The notes under the pieces: model-generated
Databases searched by the model: none
Seen by the model: only the letters and a program-made list of their open reading frames with translations
Told to the model about the DNA's origin: nothing
In this document: positions 1,296 through 61,337 of the stretch, piece after piece
How positions within the stretch are numbered: the stretch's first letter is position 1
How the letters are laid out: every line of letters starts with the position of its first letter
Made by a program: the position numbers and the translations under genes
IMG/VR virus record: IMGVR_UViG_2706794662_000007
Reading direction: 5' to 3' (one strand)
Length of the DNA: 64,000 bases
DNA from: a virus
Taxonomy: Duplodnaviria; Heunggongvirae; Uroviricota; Caudoviricetes

Positions 1296-1312
1296 AAACA
1301 AATTGTTTTCTA
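1296..1312. promoter_or_regulatory. family-1 palindromic motif copy (AAACAAATTGTTTTCTA) 20 nt upstream of helicase start
   Basis: matches recurrent AGAAAACAA-N-TTGTTTTCT element. Confidence 0.5.
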
Positions 1313-1319
1313 GTATTAG

Positions 1320-2069
1320 TTAATTAGATAGGGGATCAATAAACCGCCGTGCTTCTTCCAGTTCTTCTGGAAAGTGGGCGGAAATAAGGCGCTCTGGAAC
1401 GATTTCCATTAGCCAGATAGCGGAGAAAATTGCGCGTATGCGCTTGCTGCGAGGGATGGTGCGCAAACACTCCAGAATCCACTCAAAATAGCTTTCCTGA
1501 ATCGGGTTGAACTGCATGTCTCCCATATGCTTAAAGCTAACAAGAGAGTCATCCAGACGGGTTGTTGCGCGTCTGGCTAATTTCTCTTCGAATATCTCAA
1601 CCAGCTCTGGCTGCCACAAATGCTGTGGGCGCGGCAGCTTGTCCCACAGCCGTCGTGCAGCTGCGGAAAGAACGGTGGAGATAAAGTAGTCGTATGAGCA
1701 GCAATAGCGGTCAGCAAACTGGCGTGCTTTCCATAGAGACGTTTTATTGGCAGTCGACAACTCCTGATAAGGCAGGCGTTTTAACCCGGTGGTGAACGGA
1801 GCTGTTTCAAAGTGTTCGCGACCGTGCGTCAGCATGATATTTGAGTACTGACGTTTGTATGCCTCCGTAAACAGACAGGTGGCCATAAGAGGATGCATGT
1901 CTCGGTAATCAAACCACTTCGTCTCGAAGAGTTCAGCCTCGTCTTTACAGCGCGACAAACCAATGTTTTCAGCGACCCACTTGTCCATAACAGCGGTATT
2001 CCACTCTGTCATGAAGTCGTACTGGTCGTTGTCGATGGTATCGAAAAAGATTTGGCTCATGTGGCTCAC
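1320..2069 (-). CDS. hypothetical protein, 249 aa (GTG at 2069 or ATG at 2060)
   Basis: ORF track; co-oriented just upstream of helicase gene. Confidence 0.45.
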   Translation of the reverse strand: MSHMSQIFFDTIDNDQYDFMTEWNTAVMDKWVAENIGLSRCKDEAELFETKWFDYRDMHPLMATCLFTEAYKRQYSNIMLTHGREHFETAPFTTGLKRLPYQELSTANKTSLWKARQFADRYCCSYDYFISTVLSAAARRLWDKLPRPQHLWQPELVEIFEEKLARRATTRLDDSLVSFKHMGDMQFNPIQESYFEWILECLRTIPRSKRIRAIFSAIWLMEIVPERLISAHFPEELEEARRFIDPLSN

Positions 2070-2176
2070 CTGGTAGGTAGTTACTTACTTATCACAATGG
2101 ACGGATGATAGCGACTGGTGTCAGTTTTTGGAAGTGAAAACGGAAGGGAGTTGTTCTGGTGGTGTCTTTTAAAAGA

Positions 2177-2229
2177 CCTGCTTCCGTATATATTTAATAA
2201 GTTACTTATTATTTATATACAGAAACAGG
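2177..2229. repeat. ~53-bp near-perfect palindrome, copy A (CCTGCTTCCGTATATAT...ATATACAGAAACAGG)
   Basis: inverted arms flank AT-rich centre TTAATAAGTTACTTATTA; near-identical copies at 33069-33123 and 63687-63747. Confidence 0.75.
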
Positions 2230-2334
2230 CTCCTAATGGATACCAAGAACAACATAATTTGACTCCAACTCCAGATGCTATGTCATTGACAGATTTATCA
2301 AGGGAGATCATGTTAGAATTAGTGTTTTAGCCTC

Positions 2335-3408
2335 GTGGATATTGTCACCATGCGCATGAATAGACTTCCAGGATATGGCCTTCCCGAACTGGCTTTTTGG
2401 CCTCAGCCTAAATATGAACGGAATAAATGGTCGATGTTCTGTCTGAAACTCCGTAATGATGGAACCCTTGCTTGGTATCGGCGATATGTTGATCGTGGTA
2501 TGCCAAACCACGCTGTTGATGACGACTACGATAACTATCCTGAAGCAAGAAAAGCGGCATTAGAGCTGAATAAAAACGTGAGCTTTGACATTGAAAAACT
2601 TCCTCTATCTATGTTTCAAAAGAAGTCATTGCGTTTGAAAGTTGACAAAGCACTCAAAGCCAAATCACGTCTCATGGATGAAGAGTATATAATGCTCAAC
2701 GAAGCAATTAAGGCACACGCCAACGATCCGCGAGTGACATTAAATGAGTTAATAATTAACCCAGATTACGAAACTTTGCGTCAACCCCTTTTTGACGTGC
2801 TAAGCGAGATGCCTTACTTACATTTTGTTTTTCTTCCCAAATTCCAAGTTTCACTTCAACTCGTTGCTCCTAACACTTGGGAATGTTCATATAACAACAA
2901 AGCTAAGACAGCGAAGATCTGCTACCAAGAACGCATAGCCAGAGGTTTTGGTTTATCAGGTGCTGCACATTGGGGAAAAACAAAAGCGACTATTCGCTCA
3001 ATGCTTCTGCCGCGTGCTAACCGGTTACTGCAACTCGCCAGCGTAAAAAGAATGCTGGATGAAGCTCTCAGGAATGGGCAAAAGGTACTGGTTGTTGGCA
3101 ACTTTGTTTTCTGGTTTGAGGACAAAAATCAGGTAGGTTGGAGTGTTAAAGTTGCTAGCGAAAGCGAAACCACCTCAAGAGGCAATACGCTCTGGAAAGA
3201 AGGAACTATCATTTCAAAAAATCACGGTCGAATTGTCGTGCTGCCGTATACAAAAGAAAACGGTAAACATGTAAAAGGTTATACCAAGAATGCCCCTAAC
3301 GACGGCAATGCAATTCCGAGACATAAGGATGAGTATGTTGAGTTGCCCTTTGAAATTTTGGATGGTGACTTGATGTTCAGTCTGTTCGGTGAGCTTAACT
3401 ACGAATAG
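2335..3408 (+). CDS. hypothetical protein, 357 aa; AT-richer than flanks (cargo-like)
   Basis: ORF track; only plus-strand gene in a minus-strand region; no motif recognised. Confidence 0.5.
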   Translation: MDIVTMRMNRLPGYGLPELAFWPQPKYERNKWSMFCLKLRNDGTLAWYRRYVDRGMPNHAVDDDYDNYPEARKAALELNKNVSFDIEKLPLSMFQKKSLRLKVDKALKAKSRLMDEEYIMLNEAIKAHANDPRVTLNELIINPDYETLRQPLFDVLSEMPYLHFVFLPKFQVSLQLVAPNTWECSYNNKAKTAKICYQERIARGFGLSGAAHWGKTKATIRSMLLPRANRLLQLASVKRMLDEALRNGQKVLVVGNFVFWFEDKNQVGWSVKVASESETTSRGNTLWKEGTIISKNHGRIVVLPYTKENGKHVKGYTKNAPNDGNAIPRHKDEYVELPFEILDGDLMFSLFGELNYE

Positions 3409-3468
3409 CTTTCATAGAACGAAATATTTCTAAGGCTGTCCAATGCAGACCAGCCTTAGAGATTTATA

Positions 3469-3828
3469 TCAACCTTTCTTCATTAACTCGCGTTTAATTT
3501 CATCGGTACGCATCGTGACATCGGCAGCAGTGATCGCCTCGTTAAGCTTCACGATGTCCTCGATTTCCTGCGGTGACTTCTCTGCCAGATGGAAAATAGC
3601 AGCACGAATCACATCAGAGCGGGTGAATTTCTCGAAGCGAGGGATGAACTTCATCATCTCCAGCAGTTCGAAGTATTCGTCCTCCAGTGACATTGTGCGG
3701 CTTTTAATTTTCTCTTTGCCACGAGTCGGGCGTCCCTGTGGTCTGACTGGTTGGCGCAAAGGAGTTGTGTTCTTAGCCGGTGCATCAGACTCTTTGCGCT
3801 TTGCTAGGTCACCCATTTTCATGGACAT
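3469..3828 (-). CDS. small partition partner candidate (ParG/ribbon-helix-helix-like DNA-binding protein)
   Basis: 119 aa, basic N-terminus, start overlaps parA stop (ATGA-type junction at 3828). Confidence 0.35.
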   Translation of the reverse strand: MSMKMGDLAKRKESDAPAKNTTPLRQPVRPQGRPTRGKEKIKSRTMSLEDEYFELLEMMKFIPRFEKFTRSDVIRAAIFHLAEKSPQEIEDIVKLNEAITAADVTMRTDEIKRELMKKG

Positions 3829-4496
3829 TATTCTTCTTCCTCCAGACTCAACAGATAATCTACAAATTCTTCAAACTCGGCTTCCGCCTTTTTGTCGCGC
3901 TCGCTACCGGTCATTTCAAAGATAGAACGACCAGACTCTTCCGCATCATCATAGACGTTGCGGTTATATAGATTGACTGGCGCAGACTCGATGCCAAACG
4001 TCTCAACAATCTCTTTAGCCGCCAGAATGCGAGACACTTGTGATGGCAAAGCCGGGCACTGGTTCATGACCGCGCGGACCTTCACTTTATCGTTTACATT
4101 GCGAACATTGTCGATAATAGGATCGATGTCACGTAAAGATTTCAAATCACGACGCTTAGGACGCAGCGGGATAATGATAACGTCAGCCATCAGCATCGCT
4201 TGTCGCTGAATTTCGGAGTCGAAGCCACCAGCATCTACCACTACAAACTCAGCTCTACCCTGAAGCGATTTTAGGTGCTTAATGATGTCATCCTGAACGT
4301 ATGCAAAAGGAATCAGCTCAAGGTCTTCGTTCTGTCGACGGTCTTCACACCAGCTCGTTGTCGTGCGCTGAATATCTATATCGGTAATATAAACCTTCTT
4401 CTTCTTTTTGACTTTCAGGCAAACGGCAATTTGCTGGGCAACGGTGGATTTGCCAGGCCCGCCCTTTGTGCCGCCAACCACAAAGATCTTGGTCAT
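3828..4496 (-). CDS. parA: ParA/ParF-type partition ATPase
   Basis: deviant Walker A GGTKGGPGKST at N-terminus; 222 aa. Confidence 0.8.
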   Translation of the reverse strand: MTKIFVVGGTKGGPGKSTVAQQIAVCLKVKKKKKVYITDIDIQRTTTSWCEDRRQNEDLELIPFAYVQDDIIKHLKSLQGRAEFVVVDAGGFDSEIQRQAMLMADVIIIPLRPKRRDLKSLRDIDPIIDNVRNVNDKVKVRAVMNQCPALPSQVSRILAAKEIVETFGIESAPVNLYNRNVYDDAEESGRSIFEMTGSERDKKAEAEFEEFVDYLLSLEEEE

Positions 4497-4530
4497 TGGA
4501 GAGTTTCCTTTGCGTCTATTATTATTGTCT

Positions 4531-4549
4531 GAAACAACTTGTTTTCTTA
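4531..4549. promoter_or_regulatory. family-1 palindromic motif copy (GAAACAACTTGTTTTCTTA) ~35 nt upstream of parA
   Basis: recurrent motif; candidate operator or partition-operon control site. Confidence 0.5.
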
Positions 4550-4630
4550 TATGTGATATAGCCTAAATGCCTACGGCTGCTGTGTAAAGGTTTAATGATA
4601 GGTACATAGATTTGGTAAGGACTTAATAAC

Positions 4631-4650
4631 AAAAAACCCGCCGTAGCGGG
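4631..4650 (-). terminator. rho-independent terminator after 258-aa gene
   Basis: hairpin CCCGCCGTAGCGGG with A-run on plus strand (U-tract on minus). Confidence 0.55.
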
Positions 4651-4658
4651 TTTAGGAA

Positions 4659-5435
4659 TTAGTGGTTGGTAGACCTGGCATCAAATGTTGTAACGCCCAC
4701 TTCAATGTGGCGGTCTTCTTTGGAGATGATGGTGAGAATCTGACTAGATGGGTCTATGCTGACAGCCATAGGGTTCCAGTGACGTAACTGAGCCTCGCTG
4801 TTCAATAGCAGCGCATCCCACGGTTTGACGCCATTCTGCCCAATACCACCTTCAACAAGGACATCTATAAATTCTTTATTTAAATTGTCATAGATTTGGA
4901 CACGACCGACCAAAAGCATACCTACAGCCCAAATTCTGGCACCGTAAACCGTCTGATGGTCATCACATACTACATGGTCATGCCAATTGAGAAGAAAATT
5001 GTAAACTCTTCTAGCAAGTCCCTTTTGTTCCTTTGAAGGGGTTACAAATGCCCCTTTAATCTGGACCCCAAGGTGAGAGCCTTTTTGTGAGCGAAACTGG
5101 AATCGTTTGTAGACGAACCTGGCGATCTGAATGCCGTCATCATCTTCTTGCTCATCACCAACTAATTCACGAACACTATGAACTATCTCTTCTTCTGAAT
5201 GCCCCTGCTCGTCAAGATCCATTGCATGTTCTTGAAGCCAATCTGCATCAGGGTCGCCTACAAATGACACTGTCAAACAGTAATCATAATTAGACCCGAT
5301 CAAGGACCACTCTGTGAGCCGTAAAACAGAAAAATCAGAGTTAACCATGTAGCCAACTCTGATTTTCTCTCTTGCTTCACATTCAGGGAAATCAGACAGT
5401 ACTTTTGAATACTCTGCTATGAATGATGGTGACAT
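4659..5435 (-). CDS. hypothetical protein, 258 aa (acidic central region)
   Basis: ORF track; abuts next ORF with 1-nt gap. Confidence 0.5.
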   Translation of the reverse strand: MSPSFIAEYSKVLSDFPECEAREKIRVGYMVNSDFSVLRLTEWSLIGSNYDYCLTVSFVGDPDADWLQEHAMDLDEQGHSEEEIVHSVRELVGDEQEDDDGIQIARFVYKRFQFRSQKGSHLGVQIKGAFVTPSKEQKGLARRVYNFLLNWHDHVVCDDHQTVYGARIWAVGMLLVGRVQIYDNLNKEFIDVLVEGGIGQNGVKPWDALLLNSEAQLRHWNPMAVSIDPSSQILTIISKEDRHIEVGVTTFDARSTNH

Positions 5436-5834
5436 TTAGTTAGCAAGCCGCATATCCGTAGATGAATCCAGTTTCGCTATTTTAACATCTACGCGGTATT
5501 TATCTTTGATAAATTTAGCTATTTTGCTTTCAATCTCATAGAAAGCATCCTGTTCACAACGCACAACATCGGGAAACTGTTTTTCTGGCTTAACAAGAAA
5601 ACGTAACCGATTGTTGAGCACCATCATTTCTGCAAACAATTTGATGGTAAACTTGCCTTCTTCAACGTCACTTTTAAGGTTAACGATGAAACGCTGATCC
5701 TTAAGCATACCCGGTTTGTTCATTTCACGAATTTGGAGCGAGTCATTCCAATGCCGCAACGGAACCGATGCGATCATCTTGGTACAGTCTCTTATCGTCT
5801 GAATAGAACGAGATGCGTTAAGCGCAGTATGCAT
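5436..5834 (-). CDS. hypothetical protein, 132 aa
   Basis: ORF track; translationally coupled to 4659-5435. Confidence 0.45.
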   Translation of the reverse strand: MHTALNASRSIQTIRDCTKMIASVPLRHWNDSLQIREMNKPGMLKDQRFIVNLKSDVEEGKFTIKLFAEMMVLNNRLRFLVKPEKQFPDVVRCEQDAFYEIESKIAKFIKDKYRVDVKIAKLDSSTDMRLAN

Positions 5835-6008
5835 GTTTCCACCTTAGCCGGTAATAACTTTATGTCATAGCGGCGACCTTGTCGGTTTAGAGGCTACGAG
5901 TATGCGTCGATTTATTAAAACAAGGTATGATTTACTTGACATCCATGCTTCAAATCTACCTTGTGCTCTAATAATATGCAAATTTTATGTTAGAAAATTC
6001 CGCTTTTA

Positions 6009-17732: not shown

Positions 17733-18165
17733 AATGGATCACACCGTCGGCAAAATAATTCCGACGCGCATTACAGGCGTCATAACGTTTTGTGCAGTAA
17801 TCCGCACCAGACATAGACGTCTGCTGGTTATTTTTGTCGAAATATGGACCGGTATAGCCGCATTCTGGCCCTCGGTATTTCCACGGGCAGGTGTTTTTAA
17901 TGATCTGACGATACGGCAGTTGTACCCCCATCAAATCGAACACACTGGACAATTCAAACTCGACAACCTGATGAGTTTCGAGAGTTTTCTGTTCGATAAA
18001 CCACATTTCATCCGGGAAATGTTGGTTTGGATCTGCTGTTGGGTTGCCGTCTTTAAAATTAACGGCATCGAGGAAGCGAGCCAGCGTCATCTTGCGAATA
18101 ATGCGGCAGCCAACAAGATCGTCGTTCGCCTGAACTTCCGCAGAGACGGTTCCGGCAAAGTTCGN
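17698..18165 (-). CDS. minor tail protein L-like (5' part lost in N-run)
   Basis: C-terminal Cys cluster CPWKYRGPECGYTG...C..RYDAC; N-terminus masked. Confidence 0.65.
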   Translation of the reverse strand, partial: XNFAGTVSAEVQANDDLVGCRIIRKMTLARFLDAVNFKDGNPTADPNQHFPDEMWFIEQKTLETHQVVEFELSSVFDLMGVQLPYRQIIKNTCPWKYRGPECGYTGPYFDKNNQQTSMSGADYCTKRYDACNARRNYFADGVIHFGGFIGATRYG

Positions 18166-18414
18166 NNNNNNNNNNNNNNNNNNNNNNNNNNNNNNNNNNN
18201 NNNNNNNNNNNNNNNNNNNNNNNNNNNNNNNNNNNNNNNNNNNNNNNNNNNNNNNNNNNNNNNNNNNNNNNNNNNNNNNNNNNNNNNNNNNNNNNNNNNN
18301 NNNNNNNNNNNNNNNNNNNNNNNNNNNNNNNNNNNNNNNNNNNNNNNNNNNNNNNNNNNNNNNNNNNNNNNNNNNNNNNNNNNNNNNNNNNNNNNNNNNN
18401 NNNNNNNNNNNNNN
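18166..18414. other. run of 249 N (unresolved or masked bases)
   Basis: literal n characters. Confidence 1.
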
Positions 18415-32951: not shown

Positions 32952-33068
32952 AGATCCCTCTAAAACACACAGAGCGCGTCCATGCGCTCTAAAACAACTT
33001 GTTTACTGCATATGCTAACCAACTTGTTTTCTGGGGTGTTTAATTAGGTCTGGGCATGTCTTACTAAG

Positions 33069-36550: not shown

Positions 36551-36632
36551 TTTATTGCTACAATCCACTAAGTAATCACTTACTTATTATAATAGCCAAA
36601 TAACATACAAAAGGCACTAAGGAAAGAGGTTT

Positions 36633-38194: not shown

Positions 38195-38473
38195 ATGAGC
38201 GAAAAGAAAACAACTTATTGTCAGGTGGCATTGTCCGATAAGGCCAATGACAAACTTGGAAAGTTTCAAATGAAACTAAAAGAAAAAAACATCAAAATGT
38301 CTAAGGCTGAAGTTATCAATACCATTCTGGAGACGATGACGATGGCTGAATTTGACAAAGTTTCATCTGCCGTTGGAGTCTCTGCTAAGGCTCGTGAGAA
38401 AATCATGCGCATCTATGAGAACTCTAATATGACAAAGGAAGATTTAGAGCAAATTCTAAGCAAACTGCCGTAA
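38195..38473 (+). CDS. hypothetical protein, 92 aa, AT-rich
   Basis: ORF track; 3-nt gap after helicase gene. Confidence 0.4.
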   Translation: MSEKKTTYCQVALSDKANDKLGKFQMKLKEKNIKMSKAEVINTILETMTMAEFDKVSSAVGVSAKAREKIMRIYENSNMTKEDLEQILSKLP

Positions 38474-39248: not shown

Positions 39249-39766
39249 GAACATTGGACATCACCTACGGCATACCGGCTGAAGTATGGCCGCGAGACTA
39301 CGAACATGCTGAACGTACCTTGCTCTTCTGGCGGAGTGCAAAATTTCCTGTAAGAGTCACTCTCGAAGACGGCCAAGTGTTTTGCATGTATGTCTACGGG
39401 CTATTGAGCGCAAGAAATAAGCTGAACCTCACACCAGATCCGCTTAGCAACACAAATCGTATAAGGCTCCCTCTTGAGCGCATTAGCACAATTGAGTCGG
39501 GCATAGAAGAGGTTGACACTTCATTCACAGGTCGACTAACGCTAAACAATGAACAGATGGTTAATCAGCCATCACGTCGTGACTTTTTTAAGATATGTCG
39601 TCAGGCTTACCAAAACGGCAAATCTATAAGGGTCTACATGGCAGACGGTCGCGAAATTGAGGGAACGTCAGATGGCGTTGACGCCTGTCTAGTCACACTT
39701 AAGTTGGAAGACGGTAGAAAAATACTTATTTTCTTCGATTGGGTTGAACGAATCCTTCCGTTTTAA
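39245..39766 (+). CDS. hypothetical protein, 173 aa
   Basis: ATGA overlap with preceding secreted-protein gene. Confidence 0.45.
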   Translation: MRTLDITYGIPAEVWPRDYEHAERTLLFWRSAKFPVRVTLEDGQVFCMYVYGLLSARNKLNLTPDPLSNTNRIRLPLERISTIESGIEEVDTSFTGRLTLNNEQMVNQPSRRDFFKICRQAYQNGKSIRVYMADGREIEGTSDGVDACLVTLKLEDGRKILIFFDWVERILPF

Positions 39767-41579: not shown

Positions 41580-41843
41580 NNNNNNNNNNNNNNNNNNNNN
41601 NNNNNNNNNNNNNNNNNNNNNNNNNNNNNNNNNNNNNNNNNNNNNNNNNNNNNNNNNNNNNNNNNNNNNNNNNNNNNNNNNNNNNNNNNNNNNNNNNNNN
41701 NNNNNNNNNNNNNNNNNNNNNNNNNNNNNNNNNNNNNNNNNNNNNNNNNNNNNNNNNNNNNNNNNNNNNNNNNNNNNNNNNNNNNNNNNNNNNNNNNNNN
41801 NNNNNNNNNNNNNNNNNNNNNNNNNNNNNNNNNNNNNNNNNNN
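41580..41843. other. run of 264 N
   Basis: literal n characters. Confidence 1.
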
Positions 41844-42324: not shown

Positions 42325-42528
42325 GATTAATTCCTTATCGTAAATAACAAATTGTTTTCTTGTTGGCGTTAATTATCGTTGTACGAATAAGGCGTCAAAG
42401 TGGAAAGTTGCGGTAGCCGGACGGGAACAGGTGGGTTTGTCGGTTGCCTGGAGGTAAGAGGTTGGTGTTTTTAGCCTGCGGGAAACAGGATGGTCATTTA
42501 AGGCCACCAGCAGTGGTGGCCTTAATAA

Positions 42529-42672
42529 TTATCGACCGATTACGCTAAGGATCTTTTCCTCAACTGATTTGTTGTTGCGACTAAACTGCCTTGCGTATCT
42601 GATGACAGAAGAGGCGTTTTGCTTTCTGACTATCTCGGCTCTTTCCTTCAGGCGTTTCTTGAAATCGCCCAT
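42529..42672 (-). CDS. small basic ORF, 47 aa (below ORF-track threshold)
   Basis: own translation MGDFKKRLKERAEIVRKQNASSVIRYARQFSRNNKSVEEKILSVIGR; followed by hairpin at 42500-42523. Confidence 0.25.
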   Translation of the reverse strand: MGDFKKRLKERAEIVRKQNASSVIRYARQFSRNNKSVEEKILSVIGR

Positions 42673-42674
42673 AT

Positions 42675-43049
42675 TTACCACCAGGCGCAGAAGGTCAGTC
42701 TGTTATTGTGAAAGTCGTGGTTCTTAATCAGCTCTTCCACAAGTTTTTTCAACTCCCCCACGTCATGCCAGTACCCTTCATCGTACTCCTGACTGCCGAA
42801 GAAAAAACCTTCACAGGTAGGTAAGTACTCTTCGCAGTTACTTTCGTTCATGTGCATCAAATGAGCTTTCAGAGCACAAATGTCATTCATCGTTAATTCT
42901 AAAAGCTCACAATTTTTGACTTCACCTACGTTGCGTTCCATCCACCCAAAGAGAGCATTGAACTTACGGAAGTAAGCAACCTTCTTTCTGGATGCATCGT
43001 TATTCAGATCGTTTTTTGGTTGCGTCTCAATGTAGATATCAAGTCCCAT
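42675..43049 (-). CDS. hypothetical protein, 124 aa (Cys-containing)
   Basis: ORF track. Confidence 0.45.
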   Translation of the reverse strand: MGLDIYIETQPKNDLNNDASRKKVAYFRKFNALFGWMERNVGEVKNCELLELTMNDICALKAHLMHMNESNCEEYLPTCEGFFFGSQEYDEGYWHDVGELKKLVEELIKNHDFHNNRLTFCAWW

Positions 43050-43167
43050 GATGGTTTCCTTATCAAGTTGCTTTCAGTGAAAGCATTTTCACAAATCAGA
43101 TAAGGCAGAAAACAAATTGTTATCGGGCATAAGAAAATGGCGCGGTTTACGCGCCATTCAAAGAGGA

Positions 43168-44000: not shown

Positions 44001-44154
44001 CACAACTCCGTAAACAACTTGTTTTCTCAATGGCGTAAATAATACCAGTAAGAAAACGGCTACAAAGCATATTGATCAGGCGCATGAGCGATATGCAGGT
44101 TCTTCCCTGCGGCTACAGATGAAGTTAAGCCAGCAATGCTGGCTTTGGTTGGGC

Positions 44155-44484: not shown

Positions 44485-44622
44485 AAAGCAATCCTTAAAC
44501 ATGTTGTTTTCTGAATTACGTAAACAATACCAGTAAGAAAACGGCCACAAAGTATATCGTTACGGTGCTGCGCTGCCCCGAGGTTAATAGCGACAAAAGC
44601 CACCGTGCTGGTGGCCTCACTC

Positions 44623-46934: not shown

Positions 46935-46988
46935 TTCAACTACTCCAAAACAAGTTGTTTTCTTATGTGGCTTATTATCTCAATCAAC

Positions 46989-47011
46989 AAAAGGTAGAAA
47001 ACAAATTGTTT
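46989..47011. repeat. 23-bp element AAAAGGTAGAAAACAAATTGTTT, left copy of exact direct repeat flanking metG-apbC
   Basis: identical 23-mer at 50832-50854. Confidence 0.8.
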
Positions 47012-47047
47012 TAGGGCTTGTGTAAATCAGGAGGGATTGTGTCTATA

Positions 47048-47095: not shown

Positions 47096-49034
47096 TTACT
47101 TAACCTGGTGGCCAGGTTTAGCACCAGCATCCGGGCTTAACAGGAAGATATCTTTCCCGCCAGGACCGGCAGCCATCACCATGCCTTCAGAGATACCGAA
47201 GCGCATTTTACGTGGTGCCAGGTTAGCCACCATAATGGTGTGACGACCAATCAGTGCCTGTGGATCTGGATAAGCGGAACGGATGCCTGAGAAGACATTA
47301 CGCTTTTCACCACCGAGATCCAGCGTCAGGCGAAGCAGTTTGTCAGAACCTTCGACAAACTCCGCGTTTTCAATCAGCGCCACACGCAGGTCAACTTTGG
47401 CGAAGTCGTCAAAGGTGATGGTTTCCTGAATCGGTTCGTCAGCCAGTGGGCCAGTTACCGGTGCAGCTGTGGCTTTCACTTCTTCTTTGGATGCTTCCAC
47501 CAGTGCTTCCACCTGTTTCATATCGATACGGTTATACAGTGCCTTGAACGGATTCACTTTATGGCCCAGAAGCGGTTGCTGGATACCATCCCAGGTCAGT
47601 TCTGTATTCAGGAATGCTTCTGCACGTTCAGTCAGTTTCGGCAGTACCGGTTTCAGGTACGTCATCAGCACGCGGAACAGGTTAATGCCCATAGAGCAAA
47701 TCGCCTGCAGATCTGCATCGCGACCTTCCTGCTTCGCCACCACCCACGGAGCCTGTTCATCGACATAGCGATTAGCCAGGTCAGCCAATGCCATGATTTC
47801 ACGGATAGCTTTACCAAATTCGCGGCTTTCCCATGCTTCGCCAATCACTTCAGCGGCATCAGTAAAGGTTTTGTACAGTTGCGGGTCAGCCAGTTCGCTT
47901 GTCAGCACGCCGTCAAAACGCTTGTTGATAAAGCCTGCATTACGGGAGGCCAGGTTAACCACTTTGTTCACGATATCGGCATTCACGCGCTGAACGAAAT
48001 CTTCCAGGTTGAGATCGATATCATCAATGCGCGAAGAGAGTTTCGCAGTGTAGTAGTAACGCAGGCTGTCAGCGTCAAAATGATTCAGCCAGGTGCTGGC
48101 TTTAATAAAGGTGCCGCGAGACTTGGACATCTTCGCGCCGTTCACCGTCACATAGCCGTGAACAAACAGGTTGGTCGGCTTGCGGAAGTTGCTGCCTTCC
48201 AGCATGGCAGGCCAGAACAGACTGTGGAAGTAAACGATATCTTTGCCGATGAAGTGGTACAGCTCGGCGGTGGAGTCTTTCTTCCAGTATTCGTCGAAGC
48301 TTACGCTGTCGCCGCGCTTGTCGCACAGATTCTTGAAAGAACCCATGTAGCCAATCGGCGCGTCCAGCCAGACGTAGAAATATTTGCCCGGCGCGTTCGN
48401 NNNNNNNNNNNNNNNNNNNNNNNNNNNNNNNNNNNNNNNNNNNNNNNNNNNNNNNNNNNNNNNNNNNNNNNNNNNNNNNNNNNNNNNNNNNNNNNNNNNN
48501 NNNNNNNNNNNNNNNNNNNNNNNNNNNNNNNNNNNNNNNNNNNNNNNNNNNNNNNNNNNNNNNNNNNNNNNNNNNNNNNNNNNNNNNNNNNNNNNNNNNN
48601 NNNNNNNNNNNNNNNNNNNNNNNNNNNNNNNNNNNNNNNNNNNNNNNNNNNNNNNNNNNNNNNNNNNNNNNNNNNNNNNNNNNNNNNNNNNNNNNNNNNN
48701 NNNNNNNNNNNNNNNNNNNNNNNNNNNNCTCTTCGCTGTGCGTCGAGTGATAGTTGTCATAGCTGATGTTAAAGCCTGCGAAATCAGTCTGATGTTCCTG
48801 ACTCATTTCGCCAATCATCTGTTCCGGTGTGATACCAAGCTGCTGTGCTTTCAGCATGATTGGCGTACCGTGGGCATCGTCGGCACAGATGAAATTAACC
48901 TCGTGGCCGCGCATTCGCTGGTAACGAACCCAGACATCAGCCTGGATGTGCTCCAGCATATGGCCGAGGTGGATTGAGCCGTTAGCGTACGGCAGCGCGC
49001 ACGTCACCAGAATTTTCTTCGCGACTTGGGTCAT
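47096..49034 (-). CDS. metG: methionine--tRNA ligase (interrupted by N-run; frame differs on the two sides of the mask)
   Basis: N-terminus [29 protein letters not shown] and C-terminus ...[24 protein letters not shown] recognised as enterobacterial MetRS. Confidence 0.9.
48390..48728. other. run of 339 N inside metG
   Basis: literal n characters. Confidence 1.
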
Positions 49035-50329: not shown

Positions 50330-50719
50330 CTACATCACAGGACAATCATCAAACTCGCCACTTCTTGCGTCGTTGATAATGTGAGTGATCACACCAAACA
50401 CGGCATTGCTGCCCGTGCATCCATCGTCATCCTTTGGCAATGCTTCCTTCTTACCGGTTCTTAAATCCTCCAGATGCTGACGTGGAGACTTCCGGTATCT
50501 TTTTACGCGATATTCCCCATCCAGAGCGCATACAAGCAGAGAACCATCAACCGGGGTAAGTGAGGAATCAACCACCAGCAATGCACCCTGTAATATTCCC
50601 TCACGATGATGACTATCAGCTGCTCTCATGAAGTAGGTCGCTGAAGGATGTCTAATTATCTGCTGATCAAGAGAAATACGGCTCTCAGCATAATCCGCCG
50701 CAGGAGAAGGGAAGCCCAT
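50330..50719 (-). CDS. UmuD'-like S24 peptidase-fold protein (starts at the position equivalent to the UmuD self-cleavage site)
   Basis: MGFPSPAADY...HPSATYF matches UmuD from Gly25 onward; Ser and Lys of dyad retained (AADS, RVKR). Confidence 0.75.
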   Translation of the reverse strand: MGFPSPAADYAESRISLDQQIIRHPSATYFMRAADSHHREGILQGALLVVDSSLTPVDGSLLVCALDGEYRVKRYRKSPRQHLEDLRTGKKEALPKDDDGCTGSNAVFGVITHIINDARSGEFDDCPVM

Positions 50720-50735: not shown

Positions 50736-50755
50736 TACTGTTCATTTACACAGTA
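50736..50755. promoter_or_regulatory. LexA (SOS) box TACTGTTCATTTACACAGTA
   Basis: perfect CTGT-N8-ACAG core 17-36 nt upstream of UmuD'-like start; in-frame TGA upstream excludes longer ORF. Confidence 0.7.
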
Positions 50756-50831
50756 TACATGAAAGAAGCTCACTCAGTGCAACTGATCGGTACATAGCAC
50801 CAGACAAAGGAACGTTATTTTCTCGAACAAG

Positions 50832-50854
50832 AAAAGGTAGAAAACAAATTGTTT
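50832..50854. repeat. 23-bp element AAAAGGTAGAAAACAAATTGTTT, right copy of direct repeat, followed by hairpin 50855-50875
   Basis: identical to 46989-47011. Confidence 0.8.
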
Positions 50855-50904
50855 AAGGCCACAACTAGTGGCCTTAATGGAGAAGGGATGCTTATTGGCT
50901 ATGG

Positions 50905-51423
50905 CTAAAAATCAAANNNNNNNNNNNNNNNNNNNNNNNNNNNNNNNNNNNNNNNNNNNNNNNNNNNNNNNNNNNNNNNNNNNNNNNNNNNNNNNNNNNN
51001 NNNNNNNNNNNNNNNNNNNNNNNNNNNNNNNNNNNNNNNNNNNNNNNNNNNNNNNNNNNNNNNNNNNNNNNNNNNNNNNNNNNNNNNNNNNNNNNNNNNN
51101 NNNNNNNNNNNNNNNNNNNNNNNNNNNNNNNNNNNNNNNNNNNNNNNNNNNNNNNNNNNNNNNNNNNNNTTTAAAGGAAGATAGGTTCCCCATAGTAGCT
51201 GTCTGCCGTGCGCTCGTGTGAAATACCGGGCCATCTTCGGATTGCTATGCTGCTTAGGAGCGCCTGGTCTGTATGTCTGATACCCGGCCAACATCCCATC
51301 AAACCTGTATAGAGGGAATGTAACAACTCCTTCGCTTTCATCGATCCACTGTCTATATGGATGCACATCATAGCGGTAGTTACGAGTTAGCAAATGAGCT
51401 TCCAGCTTTCCAAATTTAGTCAT
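50905..51423 (-). CDS. hypothetical protein interrupted by N-run
   Basis: N-terminal part MTKFGKLEAHLLTRNYRYDVHPYRQWIDESEG... visible; start at internal Met. Confidence 0.4.
   Translation of the reverse strand: MTKFGKLEAHLLTRNYRYDVHPYRQWIDESEGVVTFPLYRFDGMLAGYQTYRPGAPKQHSNPKMARYFTRAHGRQLLWGTYLPLXXXXXXXXXXXXXXXXXXXXXXXXXXXXXXXXXXXXXXXXXXXXXXXXXXXXXXXXXXXXXXXXXXXXXXXXXXXXXXXXXXXXXFDF
50917..51169. other. run of 253 N
   Basis: literal n characters. Confidence 1.
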
Positions 51424-53489: not shown

Positions 53490-53739
53490 NNNNNNNNNNN
53501 NNNNNNNNNNNNNNNNNNNNNNNNNNNNNNNNNNNNNNNNNNNNNNNNNNNNNNNNNNNNNNNNNNNNNNNNNNNNNNNNNNNNNNNNNNNNNNNNNNNN
53601 NNNNNNNNNNNNNNNNNNNNNNNNNNNNNNNNNNNNNNNNNNNNNNNNNNNNNNNNNNNNNNNNNNNNNNNNNNNNNNNNNNNNNNNNNNNNNNNNNNNN
53701 NNNNNNNNNNNNNNNNNNNNNNNNNNNNNNNNNNNNNNN
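53490..53739. other. run of 250 N
   Basis: literal n characters. Confidence 1.
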
Positions 53740-55123: not shown

Positions 55124-55364
55124 TGGCTGCCTCCTGCTTTTCTGCCTTCAACACCATGCGAGAACCATCATCCAGCTCCCACACTATCTCACCACCTTCA
55201 GCCATGACCAGTTGCCACACCAATTGAGCAGCCTCATTGGTAACATCACGACCTGGATCATTGCCAACGCGCATACGTCCACCTTCAACATCGCGCATTT
55301 TTGCCAGCATGATAGTTTTTGATAGCGGTGAAAAACCAAGCTGTAGTCGTGCTGAATTACTCAC
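55110..55364 (-). CDS. small hypothetical protein, 84 aa
   Basis: ORF track. Confidence 0.4.
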   Translation of the reverse strand: MSNSARLQLGFSPLSKTIMLAKMRDVEGGRMRVGNDPGRDVTNEAAQLVWQLVMAEGGEIVWELDDGSRMVLKAEKQEAASERN

Positions 55365-55903
55365 TGGTTGCCTCCTTTGCGAAGCTGGGCAGCAAAGTCA
55401 ACTAACCACTCAGTCATTTCAACCTTCCCTACCAGGTCTGAACCAGGGTGCATACAGCAATCACTCTGCGCCGCTTTGAAATCCTTATACTCATATTCTT
55501 GGGCCACCAGATTTTTTGCAGCTTCTATAGCAGCATCCACCCCCTGCGCACGTACTTCAGCCAGAAAAGCATCGGTGGCTGGAGTCTCCGTTAATTCGCT
55601 AACCCAATTATCTCCGTGTTCCTCGGCACACATCGCATCGAATGCTCGCTCAGATTCTTTCAGGGCTGCATTCTCCGCCGCTAATGCGTCTCTCTGCGCC
55701 CGCAACTTCTCAATTTCGGCAGCCATGTAGTAACCAACCATAGCGAAGACGGCAAAAGAGTTGTCTGCCTCATCAGGCGACACTGAGGCCATTAGCAGAC
55801 CATCGTAATAATCGTGACTCCCATTGGTGATCGCCACCTCATAGGAGTCGTGGTTCTCACGCTTGTGAATGAGAACTACGGGGTTTTCGATTTTGTTACT
55901 CAT
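55361..55903 (-). CDS. Ea22-like protein, 180 aa
   Basis: ORF track; coiled-coil centre. Confidence 0.45.
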   Translation of the reverse strand: MSNKIENPVVLIHKRENHDSYEVAITNGSHDYYDGLLMASVSPDEADNSFAVFAMVGYYMAAEIEKLRAQRDALAAENAALKESERAFDAMCAEEHGDNWVSELTETPATDAFLAEVRAQGVDAAIEAAKNLVAQEYEYKDFKAAQSDCCMHPGSDLVGKVEMTEWLVDFAAQLRKGGNQ

Positions 55904-56041
55904 GTGTTTTTCTCTTCTTTGCTGTTACATAAGCACTACCAAGTGCTGGTTTATTTTCACAAATAAGAAAATGTAGAAAACAATTTATTTAAGGCCACAA
56001 CTTATGGCCTTTATTTATTCATGCCGAAGGATTTGTAGCGT

Positions 56042-57187: not shown

Positions 57188-58892
57188 TCATTTAACGCGT
57201 TTGAAAACGTATACGCTGACTGTGATCCCTGTGTCTTCAAACTCGTTGGTAAACGACTTCCCTCTGGCATAAACGTAATTATCCATCGTCATCCAGTCCA
57301 GTATTGGCGCNNNNNNNNNNNNNNNNNNNNNNNNNNNNNNNNNNNNNNNNNNNNNNNNNNNNNNNNNNNNNNNNNNNNNNNNNNNNNNNNNNNNNNNNNN
57401 NNNNNNNNNNNNNNNNNNNNNNNNNNNNNNNNNNNNNNNNNNNNNNNNNNNNNNNNNNNNNNNNNNNNNNNNNNNNNNNNNNNNNNNNNNNNNNNNNNNN
57501 NNNNNNNNNNNNNNNNNNNNNNNNNNNNNNNNNNNNNNNNNNNNNNNNNNNNNNNNNNNNNNNNNCCAGATCGGCGTTAATATAGGCCAGAAGATCCCCA
57601 CGTCCGGCTTGAGGCTCCAACAGCTTCTCACCAGGCTTCAATTCAGTGGCTCTGGCAACGTACTCAGCAATCAAGCGTGGGGTAGGGTAGAACTGGTGTG
57701 ATTTTGTATCCGGTATTAAACCGGTAGCCACAATCGTATTTAGCGTATGGCCGATCTCATACGGGAACTGCCAGTGCTTTTTCTCCTGCACGCCGCCAAT
57801 GAAGCTCAGTGTGCGCTCAAGCTCTTCCACCTGCGACTTCTGGAGAGCTGAATCAGAGAAGTACCATACGCCTTTGTCTTTGCTCAATCGCCCGTCACGA
57901 AGCGCAGTGCGAACCGGCACGGAGATCGTCTTCTGGATTAACCCGAACTGCTTTGGTGCCCGTGTTTTTGGCGCAGTTCGGCATGGCGCGGGGATTGCAG
58001 CAGGCATACTGTAAGCCAGCACCTCATTCAACTTCCAGGCCACGTCAGGATGTATTTCAAAGTGAACGTTGCCGTTCTTGAACATCTTCACGCGCATCAG
58101 ATTTCCATCGACGTTCATCCAGTCACCGGTCTGGCAGTCGTTTGCCCGATACGCAGCTGATAGCACCTCAGCAGTGCGGTTGATGGTAATAAATTCTTTG
58201 TGCGCGAAGAAATGAAGCAAGACACGCAGATCGTCGATGTAGTCCTCTTTGCGATAGTTCACGCTAACGCTGTCACGCCAGAAATCAGAAATGCAGTCAG
58301 CGATTATCAGACGCTCGCTGAAACCGTTTGTCTTATTTGTCTTGTGCGCAGGACTCAGCGCCTTAAACAAGCCATACACGCGCTCAGAGAGATATTTGTG
58401 CCTGTCATTCAGCAAATTAAGCATCGTTGGTATGACCGTTTCTGCTTTGAACTCCGGTACACCAACGAACTCTTTAACCTTCATCTGATAGCCGGTTCTG
58501 TCAGTTTTGATGACTTCCTGCTTGCCCTCGATAAATAGCTCACGCCACTCGTCGCGACGGGAAGCTGGCATGATCAGCAGAACGTTAGTCATATCCGTAA
58601 CCTTCCTCCAGTACTCGGCCCAAATATTCTGTTTCACCCATTCCAGATCGACGTTATCCAGCCAGACTCGATTCAAACGTGAGCGATCTTCATCTGGTCG
58701 GTGGTTTAGTCGAAGCAGGCGATTAATCATGTTGTGGCGTTCATCGCCATAAACGAAGTCGTGTACCTGATACATGAAGGAGATCTCTTTCTCGCACTCG
58801 GCCACAATTTCGTGGATGACGTTCATTTCCTGTCGATAGTCGATAGCAGTGTTTGAGCTGGCATCGCCCATGATGGAAAGGGCTGTATTCAT
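57188..58892 (-). CDS. gamma-class N6-adenine DNA methyltransferase-like protein with ~390-aa N-terminal extension (interrupted by N-run; C-terminal frame uncertain)
   Basis: motif X-like QFYPTPR and motif I-like LEPQAGRGDL just before mask. Confidence 0.5.
57311..57565. other. run of 255 N
   Basis: literal n characters. Confidence 1.
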
Positions 58893-59670: not shown

Positions 59671-59897
59671 CTTACTGTATTGCCGTTAATAGTGATAGTT
59701 GGTGTAGGTATATTTACATGGTTATCGTTATTTAAAGGCATCAATGAGCACACAGCATGTAATGATTTGCCAGGTGGTGGATTTGGGTAAGTCTTAGAGC
59801 CTGACGTGGTTGTAAATCGATCAAGAAAAAAAATAGGAGTAAGGAAGCCGGTAACGTTAACTCCCTTATTATTGTAGATCCCTGTACCGTATGCCAT
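59616..59897 (-). CDS. hypothetical ORF, possibly 5' part of a frameshifted gene continuing into 58996..59670
   Basis: 55-nt overlap in different frames. Confidence 0.3.
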   Translation of the reverse strand: MAYGTGIYNNKGVNVTGFLTPIFFLDRFTTTSGSKTYPNPPPGKSLHAVCSLMPLNNDNHVNIPTPTITINGNTVSWSNLYKGLGSYIYTYWG

Positions 59898-59951
59898 TTT
59901 TCATCCTTGTTTTTATCAACATAATATGGCCGATCATGCGGCCATATCAGA

Positions 59952-60521
59952 TCAATTAGAGCTTTGAAAGGCTTTGTGTGGCTGTGTTGCGAGGTTATGT
60001 CGATGGCTTAACTCACGCATCATGTCTTCAAGGCGACTCTTTGTGTCGTCGAGTTGGTCAGCCATTGCTCCTAAAAGCTGACGAACTACCATCGGATCGT
60101 CGCTGTTTAGTGATGGCATTTTATAACCCGCCTGAGAAGACATCAGATTGAATGCTGACATCAACATCGTTAGAGAGGATTTAAGCCCGGCAATTTCACG
60201 ATCTTTGCTGGCAATAATCGTCTCACTTTTGTTACTGTCATGAGTTCCTTGAGTCTCGATCACCATATCCAAAGTCTCTTGCAACTTATCAGCTCTCTGT
60301 TTTTCAGCAAGATAATGAACACCGAAATGATGTGCTAAAGCTACAACCTGAGTTGGCTCTTCAAAGGTGGACTCAAAATTAAGTGCTGTAACCACTCTCT
60401 CAAAAATGGAAACGTCTTCTATTCCTCGAAGAATGGCTAACATTTTGACAAGTTCATTAGCATCCATTTCTTCGAATAGGGCGTTTTGTTCATCAGCTAT
60501 TGCTTTGCATTTCTCGCACAT
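59952..60521 (-). CDS. hypothetical protein, 189 aa
   Basis: ORF track; family-1 motif 17 nt upstream. Confidence 0.45.
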   Translation of the reverse strand: MCEKCKAIADEQNALFEEMDANELVKMLAILRGIEDVSIFERVVTALNFESTFEEPTQVVALAHHFGVHYLAEKQRADKLQETLDMVIETQGTHDSNKSETIIASKDREIAGLKSSLTMLMSAFNLMSSQAGYKMPSLNSDDPMVVRQLLGAMADQLDDTKSRLEDMMRELSHRHNLATQPHKAFQSSN

Positions 60522-60818
60522 ATGTTTTCCTTAATGCTTAAACAAGTTGTTTTCTTATTGGCTTTATTGTGATGTGGCATAAAAGGGGAGCAAGCTAAAC
60601 GTAAAGGTGCAAACTCTCTATTTCGGTCAACGAAACACAATGGCCATTTGACCCTTGTCATTAACACGTTGCTTTACGGACTAGCGGATAAGCGAAGTAG
60701 ATCGCCAGACCAATGAGGACGCCATCAGAAATGACAGACATCATCTTTCCCGTAAAATCCACCAACACCGCCATCACCAGAAGAGCAATGACGGTCACAA
60801 GCCGGAATCTCTCAAGCA

Positions 60819-61244
60819 TTAGAGATAAGCATCCAGTGACAACTGAAGCGCCTGGGCGATCTTTTTCAGCGCCTGCTCTTCTGGTTCATCAATGCCGTCT
60901 TGGTCGGCAATATCAAGGCACAGACAAAGTACATCTACTGCATCATCAGTCCCGGCCACATCCGCCAGCTCACGTAAAGCCTGGGCATTAGCACGGCGCG
61001 GTGAGGCTTCGTATTGAGCGCGGATATTGGCGCTCATCTGGGCTATCTCACCAGCAAAAGGAGAAAATGCAGGCAGAGCTGCAATTGTTTTCTCAAGAAT
61101 GGAAATTTCTTTTGCATCGCATGTACCGTTGGCATAGGAGATCATGTACCCACCCCACACGGTGGCTTCAACCGCATCACGGTTCTCCATTTTTTTGACT
61201 TCGATAACTGCTTTACGAGTTTTCTTTTTGAAGAAACCTAACAT
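60819..61244 (-). CDS. TerB-like protein candidate
   Basis: 141 aa; N-terminus MLGFFKK and acidic D-x-D-E C-terminal helices resemble TerB. Confidence 0.4.
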   Translation of the reverse strand: MLGFFKKKTRKAVIEVKKMENRDAVEATVWGGYMISYANGTCDAKEISILEKTIAALPAFSPFAGEIAQMSANIRAQYEASPRRANAQALRELADVAGTDDAVDVLCLCLDIADQDGIDEPEEQALKKIAQALQLSLDAYL

Positions 61245-61337
61245 GTGTTTTCCTTTTGTTATTGGTCAAAACAAGTTGTTTTCTAGTTAAATAAATTGCT
61301 TACGCAAAGACGGTCAATGCATATGCACTAACAACCG

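Follow-up and report, generated by a model that had tools for sequence, protein, structure and literature searches.

Partition proteins can double as global regulators, as KorB of RK2 (OB palindromes) and the RHH protein omega of pSM19035 do; in both, a small palindrome or repeat is present at many promoters of the replicon and the centromere-binding protein autoregulates the par operon. Operators are also scattered over the phage-plasmid P1, where Ossb comes directly after the P2ssb −10 and OrepL overlaps that of PkilA (P1 record). Other proteins that act at phage or flagellar genes are the RinA-type activators, which bind immediately 5′ of terS, and the FljA-type proteins, which block translation of fliC mRNA. 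No lifecycle regulator is named for the SSU5/pHCM2-type phage-plasmids in a 2024 review. These elements, among them S. Typhi pHCM2 and much of Y. pestis pMT1, are very common in the Enterobacteriaceae and some carry resistance genes. The family of the ParA partner considered below alone spans 791 PLSDB plasmids, nearly all of about 105–115 kb and non-mobilizable.

The DNA analysed here (64 kb, referred to as the window) is that of an SSU5-type phage-plasmid. It shows 99% identity to Escherichia phage CMS-2020a, and its relatives include Cyrano, Salmonella phage SSU5, pHCM2 and pMT1. An earlier note on this DNA described a recurrent palindromic motif. The probable function of this motif is to provide binding sites for a master regulator of phage genes.

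Sequence and distribution of the motif

The consensus of the 19-base motif is AGAAAACAA-N-TTGTTTAAG, an asymmetric 19-mer containing a symmetric 13-bp dyad core, AAACAA-N-TTGTTT. The outer three positions are AGA at one end and AAG at the other (positions 17–19 are AAG at most sites); they are non-complementary. The dyad symmetry that had been noticed thus holds for the core and not for the whole 19-mer, and the perfect palindrome AGAAAACAA-N-TTGTTTTCT is realised nowhere.

A copy is present at all 14 of the coordinates originally listed. The enrichment is evident from the 19-mer with up to 3 mismatches (13 matches in the window, 0.06 expected) and from ACAANTTGT (12 matches, 1.8 expected). 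At a weight-matrix score of at least 18 there are 15 sites, 14 of which lie outside ORFs, defined as DNA not under an ATG-ORF of at least 90 aa (17% of the window; binomial P = 2.6e-10), in agreement with the intergenic family that was proposed. The claim of at least 15 copies is to be lowered to 14 convincing ones. The fifteenth strong site, at 38205–38223, lies in the first codons of a gene, is not kept in relatives and is a chance match. Six masked N runs could conceal further copies. The distance to the start codon, given before as usually 11–35 nt, is 5–32 nt for the 10 sites in gene direction, roughly as stated, but about 57–120 nt for the 4 inverted ones.

The motif is specific to the element family. 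Strong sites number 13–18 per ~100-kb SSU5-type genome and 13 in the 64-kb window, as against 0 in 818 kb of unrelated enterobacterial chromosomal DNA and 0 in 50 kb of P1; the comparison with unrelated enterobacterial DNA thus sustains the original observation. Among viral contigs having a match, multiple strong sites occur at 24 of 48 SSU5-like loci and at 1 of 72 unrelated loci. In Cyrano, 14 of 16 sites fall within intergenic DNA, which makes up 13% of that genome. No published report of the motif was found, nor was its sequence found in the literature searched.

Promoter geometry and conservation of the sites

Relative to a −10-like hexamer (GATAAT, in many cases with TGn), the motif is found in one of two fixed registers. 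Class A sites lie about 10 nt 3′ of the hexamer, at ~+5 to +23, directly before the SD and ATG. Class B sites are inverted and lie 16 nt 5′ of the −10, at about −47 to −29, with the TTTTCT arm at the −35 position. The sites in the window are:

1293–1311, minus strand: class A site AGAAAACAATTTGTTTAAA, 16 nt 5′ of the ATG of a DnaB-like helicase gene
4529–4547, minus strand: class A site AGAAAACAAGTTGTTTCAG, 32 nt 5′ of the ATG of parA (3828–4496)
32989–33007, minus strand: proximal terS tandem site AGTAAACAAGTTGTTTTAG; 3′ of it a GC hairpin and T run (32972–32989), then the SD and the ATG at 32951
33014–33032, minus strand: distal terS tandem site AGAAAACAAGTTGGTTAGC, right arm degenerate, centre 25 bp from that of the proximal site
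42342–42360, minus strand: class A site; GATAAT 11 nt upstream (42372–42377) and TTGACG beyond, ATG 17 nt downstream
43107–43125, plus strand: class B site, in the opposite orientation to the minus-strand genes; a hairpin (43139–43155) precedes it in gene direction, GAAAAT exactly 16 nt downstream (43085–43090)
44009–44027, minus strand: class A site; TGg-TATTAT 11 nt upstream (44039–44044), ATG 8 nt downstream
44494–44512, minus strand: class A site AGAAAACAACATGTTTAAG; TATTGT 11 nt upstream, ATG 9 nt downstream
46945–46963, minus strand: class A site; shares the −10 hexamer GATAAT (46974–46979) with the class B site at 46996, the promoter being flanked on both sides
46996–47014, plus strand: class B site, centre 51 bp from that of the class A site at 46945, TTTTCT arm at −35
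50839–50857, plus strand: class B site; preceded by a hairpin (50857–50873), GAAAAT 16 nt downstream (50817–50822); upstream of a LexA box (50736–50755) and an S24-peptidase gene
55975–55993, plus strand: class B site; preceded by a hairpin (55993–56009), GAAAAT 16 nt downstream (55953–55958); upstream of an Eae-like gene (55361–55903)
60537–60555, minus strand: class A site AGAAAACAACTTGTTTAAG, the top score; CACAAT 10 nt upstream, ATG 15 nt downstream
61266–61284, minus strand: class A site before a tciA-like gene (60819–61244); TTGACC-N17-TTATTT upstream

The DnaB-like helicase gene extends beyond the left end of the window.

Of 39 distinct class A sites, 59% have their best −10-like hexamer 9–11 nt upstream (12% in shuffles), and 12 of 17 class B sites have GATAAT or GAAAAT at exactly 16 nt downstream; TGn accompanies 17 of the 39 and 10 of the 17, respectively. 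Overall, 45 of 62 sites (about three quarters) are 3′ of the −10 and the other 17 are inverted and 5′ of it. A generic sigma-70 scan with strict −35/−10 elements calls none of the motif promoters, owing to weak −35 hexamers or a 15-nt spacing of these to the −10. The promoters are predicted from the recurrent −10/TGn offset, and the sites lie within about −50 to +25 of these putative promoters in a reproducible register. The AGAAAAC end of the 19-mer always points toward the promoter core. The motif is therefore used in both orientations, as previously noted, but it is not orientation-free, since the 19-mer is asymmetric and one end is promoter-facing. A simple symmetric dimer site would not usually be so strictly asymmetric or so fixed in orientation.

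Motif and geometry are kept in elements from E. coli, Salmonella, Klebsiella and Yersinia despite diverged flanks; a search of related genomes, as had been suggested, recovers the motif and its registers in Cyrano, SSU5, pMT1 and Klebsiella elements. Sites orthologous to 1293–1311, again with diverged flanks, are present in Cyrano, SSU5, Klebsiella pJN2-26, pVH1-2-1 and LR890700. The upstream regions of parA and the helicase in five elements (35–100% protein identity) share only the motif and SD; in the five diverged parA regions, the motif is the sole conserved block besides the SD. The class A and class B pair around one promoter, with centres 51 bp apart, is also found in Cyrano, SSU5 and Klebsiella, and the terS tandem pair in Cyrano, SSU5 and pMT1. 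Six intact sites are retained in pMT1.

Proposed operator function, candidate binders and alternative explanations

The explanation we favour, at somewhat better than even confidence, is that the motif is a cis-acting DNA operator of SSU5/pHCM2-type elements, at which a protein encoded by the phage-plasmid would shut promoters. A sequence-specific DNA-binding protein, as the earlier note had it, best fits a family of intergenic, promoter-linked sites with a dyad core; the sites, their restriction to this family, their geometry and their conservation are observed, and from them we infer action on DNA, repression as the effect and the candidates for the binder. The operator would lie in either of two mirror-image registers on sigma-70-type extended −10 promoters, between the start site and the ribosome-binding site in class A, and the bound protein, probably a dimer, would exclude RNA polymerase or prevent its escape. 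Coordinated shut-off of about 15–20 transcription units would follow, among them those of the replicative helicase, RNR-beta, parA, many small early-type genes and the terS late operon. In the Cyrano lysogen, 12 of 13 motif-headed units are at background, the exception being parA, and repA, the toxin-antitoxins, the uvsW-to-FljA-like block and CYRAN_45 are expressed without a motif. The lysogen RNA-seq is compatible with repression but non-specific, as silence is not confined to motif units (1 of 13 expressed, compared with 15 of 63 others; Fisher p = 0.18).

Based on sequence comparisons, the leading candidates for the binder are an 88-aa and a 119-aa protein; these are the two regulators pointed to before and the two that survive comparative filters. 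They are listed here together with a disfavoured RNA-level binder:

33148–33414, minus strand: 88-aa protein with weak likeness to a wHTH, encoded immediately 5′ of the terS control region (candidate binder 1)
3469–3828, minus strand: 119-aa RHH-like ParA partner, directly 3′ of parA (candidate binder 2)
39245–39766, plus strand: FljA-family protein with a tandem Hfq/Sm-like fold (RNA-level binder, disfavoured)

Fold support for the 88-aa protein is limited to sub-threshold NCBIfam matches to Sta1, Lrs14 and the LexA N-terminus. It is 84–100% identical in four relatives and 74% identical in the most divergent element, the putative recognition helix TTKQSIQFSIR being unchanged, and it is found in pMT1 and SSU5. 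The gene shows no expression in the Cyrano lysogen; with this protein as binder, the system would be a lytic-phase switch. The 119-aa protein has an RHH-like pattern with no Pfam or PDB profile match (weak matches are to aCcr1, SegB and TraM). Its conservation is high, its putative DNA-reading strand does not vary, and the gene is on in the plasmid state. The parA product is ParA-like (PHROG 164), and the parA/119-aa operon is the only candidate-regulator operon with the motif in front. The protein does not occur in pMT1, although the sites do. As binder, it would provide plasmid-state silencing and par autoregulation. There is a slim prospect that both proteins read the same operators in a CI/Cro-like switch, the 119-aa protein in the plasmid state and the 88-aa protein in the lytic phase, with the ~15 sites doubling as centromeres. 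If so, a partition protein would also be a global silencer of phage promoters, and one 19-bp element would link segregation, prophage silencing and the early-to-late switch, including in pHCM2 and pMT1.

Most sites lie 5–32 nt ahead of a start codon, in 5′ leaders beside the SD, where the class A motif might be read in the 5′-UTR by the FljA-family protein, which would block translation and destabilise the mRNA as FljA does on fliC. The protein has a full-length PF03614 match (E = 1.4e-68) and two predicted tandem Hfq/Sm-like domains with no HTH, its gene is a core gene of the group expressed in the lysogen, and the Salmonella fliC leader has CAAGUUGU...UAAGGA in common with the motif and SD. 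This reading is nevertheless quite improbable: class B sites, inverted and 5′ of the −10 at a fixed 16-nt offset, have no rationale at the RNA level, and at parA and the helicase the motif abuts the −10-like hexamer, so that part of it may be untranscribed. Moreover, matrix scores of the fliC leaders are 2.1 and −6.0, and the shared 8-mer is missing from that of E. coli; the FljA-family protein retains just 26% identity in LR890700, an element in which the core of the motif has not changed, and its gene has its own promoter without the motif. A hairpin in the RNA is not supported: 66.0% of cells are paired compared with 66.8% in shuffles, the five inner pairs are without compensatory change, every departure breaks a pair, and the MFE is −0.7 to −3.9 kcal/mol (z −1.1 to +0.6). 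The motif could also be an intrinsic promoter/leader cassette that has no trans-factor of its own and was spread by duplication and recombination, in which the TTTTCT arm would be a −35 or UP-like element and the A-rich/U-rich leader an initial-transcribed or translational enhancer. The class B arm falls on the −35 position, AU-rich leaders can boost translation, and flanks are partly common among copies (e.g. 44027 and 44512, or the GCCTTTTCTTATTTG spacer). We consider it unlikely, given that the same 13-bp dyad core recurs in opposite orientations and different registers at otherwise unalignable promoters, that neither a −35 nor an enhancer role needs dyad symmetry, and that the motif is conserved in relatives beyond the adjacent spacer.

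Two further possibilities accept a DNA-binding protein and differ in its role. The sites could be dispersed centromere-like elements for a ParA/119-aa RHH partition system, comparable to the four separate sites IR1–4 of N15, with any effect on transcription secondary; the Sop system of N15 is reported to influence late gene expression. The motif is the only conserved element 5′ of parA, the par locus is without a classical repeat array (2000–5900, beside the par operon, holds no array of iterated sub-sites, and parA is preceded by one motif copy), and the small ParA partner, whose putative DNA-reading strand is invariant, is strongly conserved and has plasmid-state expression. Little credence is given to this, however, since the tight −10 register points to promoter control beyond mere placement in free DNA and pMT1 has kept sites without this par system; in addition, three ~55-bp palindromes of a separate family, one at the end of the par operon, are alternative centromere candidates, and the RHH fold of the 119-aa candidate is without a profile match. 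Positive control, by an activator such as the 88-aa protein (compare RinA and P1 Lpa), would leave the promoters silent in lysogens where the activator is lacking. Weak −35 regions, class B sites centred near −38 (an activator-compatible position), the tandem pair before terS directly 3′ of the 88-aa gene and the silence of that gene in the lysogen are in its favour. It is still very doubtful, because three quarters of the sites lie at the typical repression position 3′ of the −10 and because the parA operon, which carries a site, is expressed in the lysogen while the putative activator is off. A defined operator, some 15 promoters mapped as its targets and a short list of two binders make it directly testable how these elements are kept silent and how they are switched on. 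The motif also provides a compact signature for recognising the family and for annotating its transcription units.

Comparison with known systems

As regards FljA and fliC, the likeness is that the element has a gene for a member of this protein family and that the majority of sites lie in leaders beside the SD; the differences are that the known target leaders mismatch the motif, that inverted copies lie upstream of promoters and that the protein has diverged. The C1 regulon of P1 resembles the layout proposed here, with scattered single operators on a phage-plasmid that overlap or lie just 3′ of sigma-70 lytic promoters. The C1 operator, however, is a 17-bp sequence, ATTGCTCTAATnAATTT, with no dyad core, whereas the motif has a dyad core and two mirror-image registers. 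A matrix from the operators annotated in the P1 record gives one marginal match in the window (14.5, at 46218), compared with 5 in 50 kb of P1, and neither P1 homology nor a C1 homologue was found in the window, which matches SSU5-type phage-plasmids only. At 11 promoters of P1, the Lpa-dependent late ones, a short inverted repeat keeps a constant spacing to the −10, as the motif does. The Lpa box differs in being a 9-bp AAGTNACTT, 4 nt 5′ of the −10 (the ‘−22 region’), and activating, and the motif is unrelated to it in sequence; AAGTNACTT-N4-TAnnnT, a pattern derived from the P1 record, is absent from both strands of the window. The description of the layout as P1-type is therefore not upheld: the window is SSU5-type, the C1 and Lpa sequences differ and the motif matrix finds nothing in P1.

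No homology to KorB or omega was found in the element. In contrast to those systems, the two ParB-N-domain proteins encoded here are not expressed in the lysogen, and what connects the RHH candidate with the motif is circumstantial. The SopB sites of N15 resemble the present ones in being several separate inverted-repeat copies on a phage-plasmid rather than a single centromere array, and the N15 partition system is likewise reported to affect phage gene expression. N15, though, combines a large SopB of type Ia with 4 sites of the GTGCGACCnnGGTCGCAC type, whereas the SSU5-type element has about 15–18 sites in a strict promoter register and a small type Ib-like ParA, with putative binding by a par protein.

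Occurrence and anatomy of the motif

The motif is a promoter-linked element that recurs across the window, with the duplex AGAAAACAACTTGTTTAAG as an example. Each of the 14 copies listed in the earlier note was found, and the excess over shuffled controls was clear: the 19-mer with up to 3 mismatches occurs 13 times versus 0.06 expected from dinucleotide shuffles, and the core, ACAANTTGT, 12 times versus 1.8 expected. The intergenic location claimed for the copies was also borne out. The sites were used to derive a weight matrix, with which 15 positions score at least 18; of these, 14 are found in the 17% of the window that no ATG-ORF of at least 90 aa covers (P = 2.6e-10). The one exception, at 38205-38223, is regarded as a chance match because it lies in the first codons of the gene for a 92-aa protein and is not conserved in relatives. 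These counts exclude six masked runs, about 250-330 nt each, which could conceal extra motif copies or genes:

18165-18414, N run
41580-41843, N run
48400-48728, N run
50917-51169, N run
53490-53739, N run
57311-57565, N run

The consensus of 62 strong sites pooled from four genomes is AGAAAACAA-N-TTGTTTAAG, in which positions 1-9 and 11-16 are each conserved in at least 89% and position 10 is free. The perfect palindrome described in the earlier note had to be abandoned. Positions 17-19 are mostly AAG where a perfect palindrome would need TCT, and the motif is therefore a 13-bp dyad core within an asymmetric 19-mer.

Orienting the sites by the downstream gene gave two classes, A (n = 45) and B (n = 17). 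In class A, AGAAAACAA reads in the direction of the gene, the start codon is 5-32 nt downstream of the site and the best -10-like hexamer (mostly GATAAT or TATTAT, often with TGn) is 9-11 nt upstream in 59% of 39 distinct cases versus 12% in shuffles. Class B sites are inverted, are usually preceded by a terminator-like hairpin of the upstream gene, and in 12 of 17 have GATAAT or GAAAAT exactly 16 nt downstream, such that the TTTTCT arm occupies the place of the -35 hexamer of other promoters. At promoters with both classes the centre-to-centre distance is always 51 bp, with the AGAAAAC ends pointing to the promoter core. The spacing to the -10-like hexamer deviates at parA, the helicase gene, terS, RNR-beta and tciA. 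Because the -35 hexamers of the motif-linked promoters are weak or stand 15 nt away from the -10, a generic sigma-70 scan did not call these promoters; their assignment is accordingly based on the recurrent -10/TGn offset.

Conservation in SSU5-type phage-plasmids

The close matches of the window are all SSU5-type siphoviral phage-plasmids. Scans covered the complete genomes of Cyrano, SSU5, the Klebsiella phage pJN2-26, Y. pestis pMT1 and the divergent Klebsiella plasmid LR890700, and a 38-kb segment of pVH1-2-1. SSU5-type genomes of about 100 kb have 13-18 strong sites and the 64-kb window has 13. The expectation that unrelated DNA would lack the motif held, as neither a site nor the 13-bp core was found in 818 kb of enterobacterial chromosomal DNA (105 loci) or in 50 kb of P1. 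When viral contigs containing an exact match were compared, multiple strong sites were present in 24 of 48 SSU5-like loci versus 1 of 72 unrelated loci. Annotated intergenic DNA makes up 13% of the Cyrano genome and holds 14 of its 16 sites; the remaining two overlap start codons whose calls are probably too far upstream.

A search of related genomes, as proposed in the earlier note, revealed that the motif is kept at orthologous promoters (terS, parA, helicase, cobT and others) in elements of E. coli, Salmonella, Klebsiella and Yersinia. The only blocks common to the regions upstream of parA and the helicase gene in five elements (35-100% protein identity) are the motif and the SD. The core and both geometries are preserved in the roughly 15 sites of the most divergent element, LR890700, where position 3 alone is relaxed. 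The motif sequence was not described in the literature searched and a 2024 review gives no regulator for the SSU5 group. The motif is real and family-specific, a putative promoter-linked operator that is apparently undescribed.

Other elements were also noticed in the window:

2177-2229, AT-rich near-perfect palindrome of about 55 bp, CCTGCTTCYGTATATAT...ATATATACRGAAGCAGG
33069-33123, second copy of the palindrome
63689-63745, third copy of the palindrome
32972-32989, GC hairpin followed by a T run in the terS leader, after the proximal motif site and ahead of the SD
50736-50755, perfect LexA box, TACTGTTCATTTACACAGTA
50330-50719, S24-peptidase (UmuD-like) gene, with the LexA box just upstream

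The palindrome has syntenic copies in Cyrano, SSU5, pJN2-26 and pMT1; the linear SSU5 records begin inside one, and LR890700 has half-copies beside the par operon end and before terS. The palindrome may serve as a dispersed centromere, as a binding site for a protein or as a terminator acting in both directions. The stem of the terS-leader hairpin is conserved and its loop variable in four genomes; it is a terminator- or attenuator-like element of the late-operon leader, hinting at antitermination control. In SSU5 and the Klebsiella relatives, LexA boxes precede a small gene of about 88 aa, downstream of a class B site; the boxes are relevant because ciprofloxacin induces Cyrano.

Candidate binding proteins

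Candidates were filtered by protein conservation wherever the motif occurs and by the Cyrano lysogen transcriptome. The proteins considered in the window are:

33148-33414 (-), 88-aa protein, weakly wHTH-like
3469-3828 (-), 119-aa protein, RHH-like ParA partner
38195-38473 (+), 92-aa protein, RHH-like pattern KKTTYCQVALS, helix, MSKAEVINTILETM
35202-36568, two ParB-N-domain proteins
39245-39766 (+), FljA-like protein

The 88-aa and 119-aa proteins, already named as candidates in the earlier note, are the two leading candidates after the comparative filter. The 119-aa protein is encoded directly after parA and has the sequence pattern of an RHH partition/autorepressor protein, with an invariant IKSRTMS strand and 91-99% identity in close relatives; profile and structure checks of the RHH fold were negative or weak. 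Its gene has the highest lysogen expression among the conserved candidate regulators of Cyrano, and it is the sole candidate with the motif preceding its operon. The loss of this protein from pMT1, which keeps six intact motif sites, counts against it only mildly: pMT1 is weak as a natural knockout because the site flanks are equally conserved, and recent descent could explain the retention.

The 88-aa gene is immediately upstream of the terS control region and present in every genome examined. Its product is 74-100% identical, and even the most divergent element has the identical putative recognition helix; the homologues listed are all at least 75% identical. Winged-helix similarity is sub-threshold, and profile and structure checks of the wHTH fold were negative or weak. 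The gene is not expressed in the Cyrano lysogen, and its product would therefore be a lytic-phase regulator.

pMT1 keeps homologues of 58 of the 123 Cyrano proteins. The entire terS-to-tail operon is still there, as are the 88-aa, 92-aa and FljA-like proteins; the small ParA, its 119-aa partner and the replicative helicase have been lost.

Other candidates were rejected. CYRAN_45, a "putative repressor" with a classical HTH, is missing from SSU5 and has its own switch region with different dyads. Between CYRAN_45 and a divergent small gene (Cyrano 42574-42826, outside the window) are GGTAAG-TG-CTTACC and related half-sites, which probably form an independent switch of the CI/Cro type with operators of its own; SSU5 lacks this module. 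For the 92-aa protein, the reading strand varies, LR890700 has no homologue and the site at the coding start is the chance match; the Cyrano lysogen strongly expresses its gene, which lies between those for a UvsW-like helicase and the FljA-like protein. Both ParB-N-domain proteins are silent in this lysogen. The site of a host transcription factor was rejected given its zero copies in the 818 kb of enterobacterial chromosomal DNA, and the half-site spacing of PurR, KdgR, TyrR and 434-type operators seems to differ from that of the motif.

Proposed mechanism, alternatives and known systems

The reading to which we give somewhat better than even weight is that the sites are DNA operators for a phage-plasmid-encoded protein giving coordinated shut-off. 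In class B the bound protein would occlude the -35 region of an extended -10 promoter and in class A the start and early-transcribed region, such that about 15-20 transcription units would be shut off together. In published RNA-seq of the Cyrano lysogen, 12 of the 13 units headed by the motif show background levels, the exception being parA. Such silence fits repression without being diagnostic of it, because 48 of 63 motif-free unit heads are silent too (Fisher p = 0.18). The units expressed without a motif are repA, the toxin-antitoxins, the uvsW-to-FljA-like block and CYRAN_45. The analysis shows the sites themselves, their specificity, their registers and their conservation, and from these we infer the DNA-level action, its negative sign and the binding protein. 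Activator sites are very unlikely, and an intrinsic promoter/leader cassette is unlikely.

An RNA-level reading was examined because most copies lie in 5' leaders. The window encodes a full-length protein of the FljA family, which prevents translation of fliC mRNA; its predicted structure has two tandem Hfq/Sm-like domains and no HTH. A hairpin was rejected: the paired fraction is the same as in shuffles, the stem is about -0.7 kcal/mol, the five inner pairs have no compensatory change (all departures break a pair) and about 80% of sites leave the three outer pairs unpaired. Several findings make an RNA operator read by the FljA-like protein improbable: the motif matrix gives the fliC leaders scores of just 2.1 and -6.0, class B sites are inverted and keep a fixed position upstream of the -10, and the protein falls to 26% identity in LR890700, which keeps the motif core unchanged. 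With the motif defined, the regulation of a very common family of phage-plasmids can be tested directly.

The P1-type layout suggested in the earlier note was rejected, as sequence, geometry and phylogeny all speak against it. The window contains neither P1 operators nor Lpa boxes, and both, as given in the P1 record, are unlike the motif in sequence and geometry. The P1 C1 operators are likewise scattered over the genome, and the motif layout works similarly without being part of the C1 system. The dispersed copies also resemble the separate IR centromere sites of N15; that they are themselves dispersed centromere sites of this type is quite unlikely. The layout is reminiscent of KorB and omega, plasmid global regulators that double as partition proteins.
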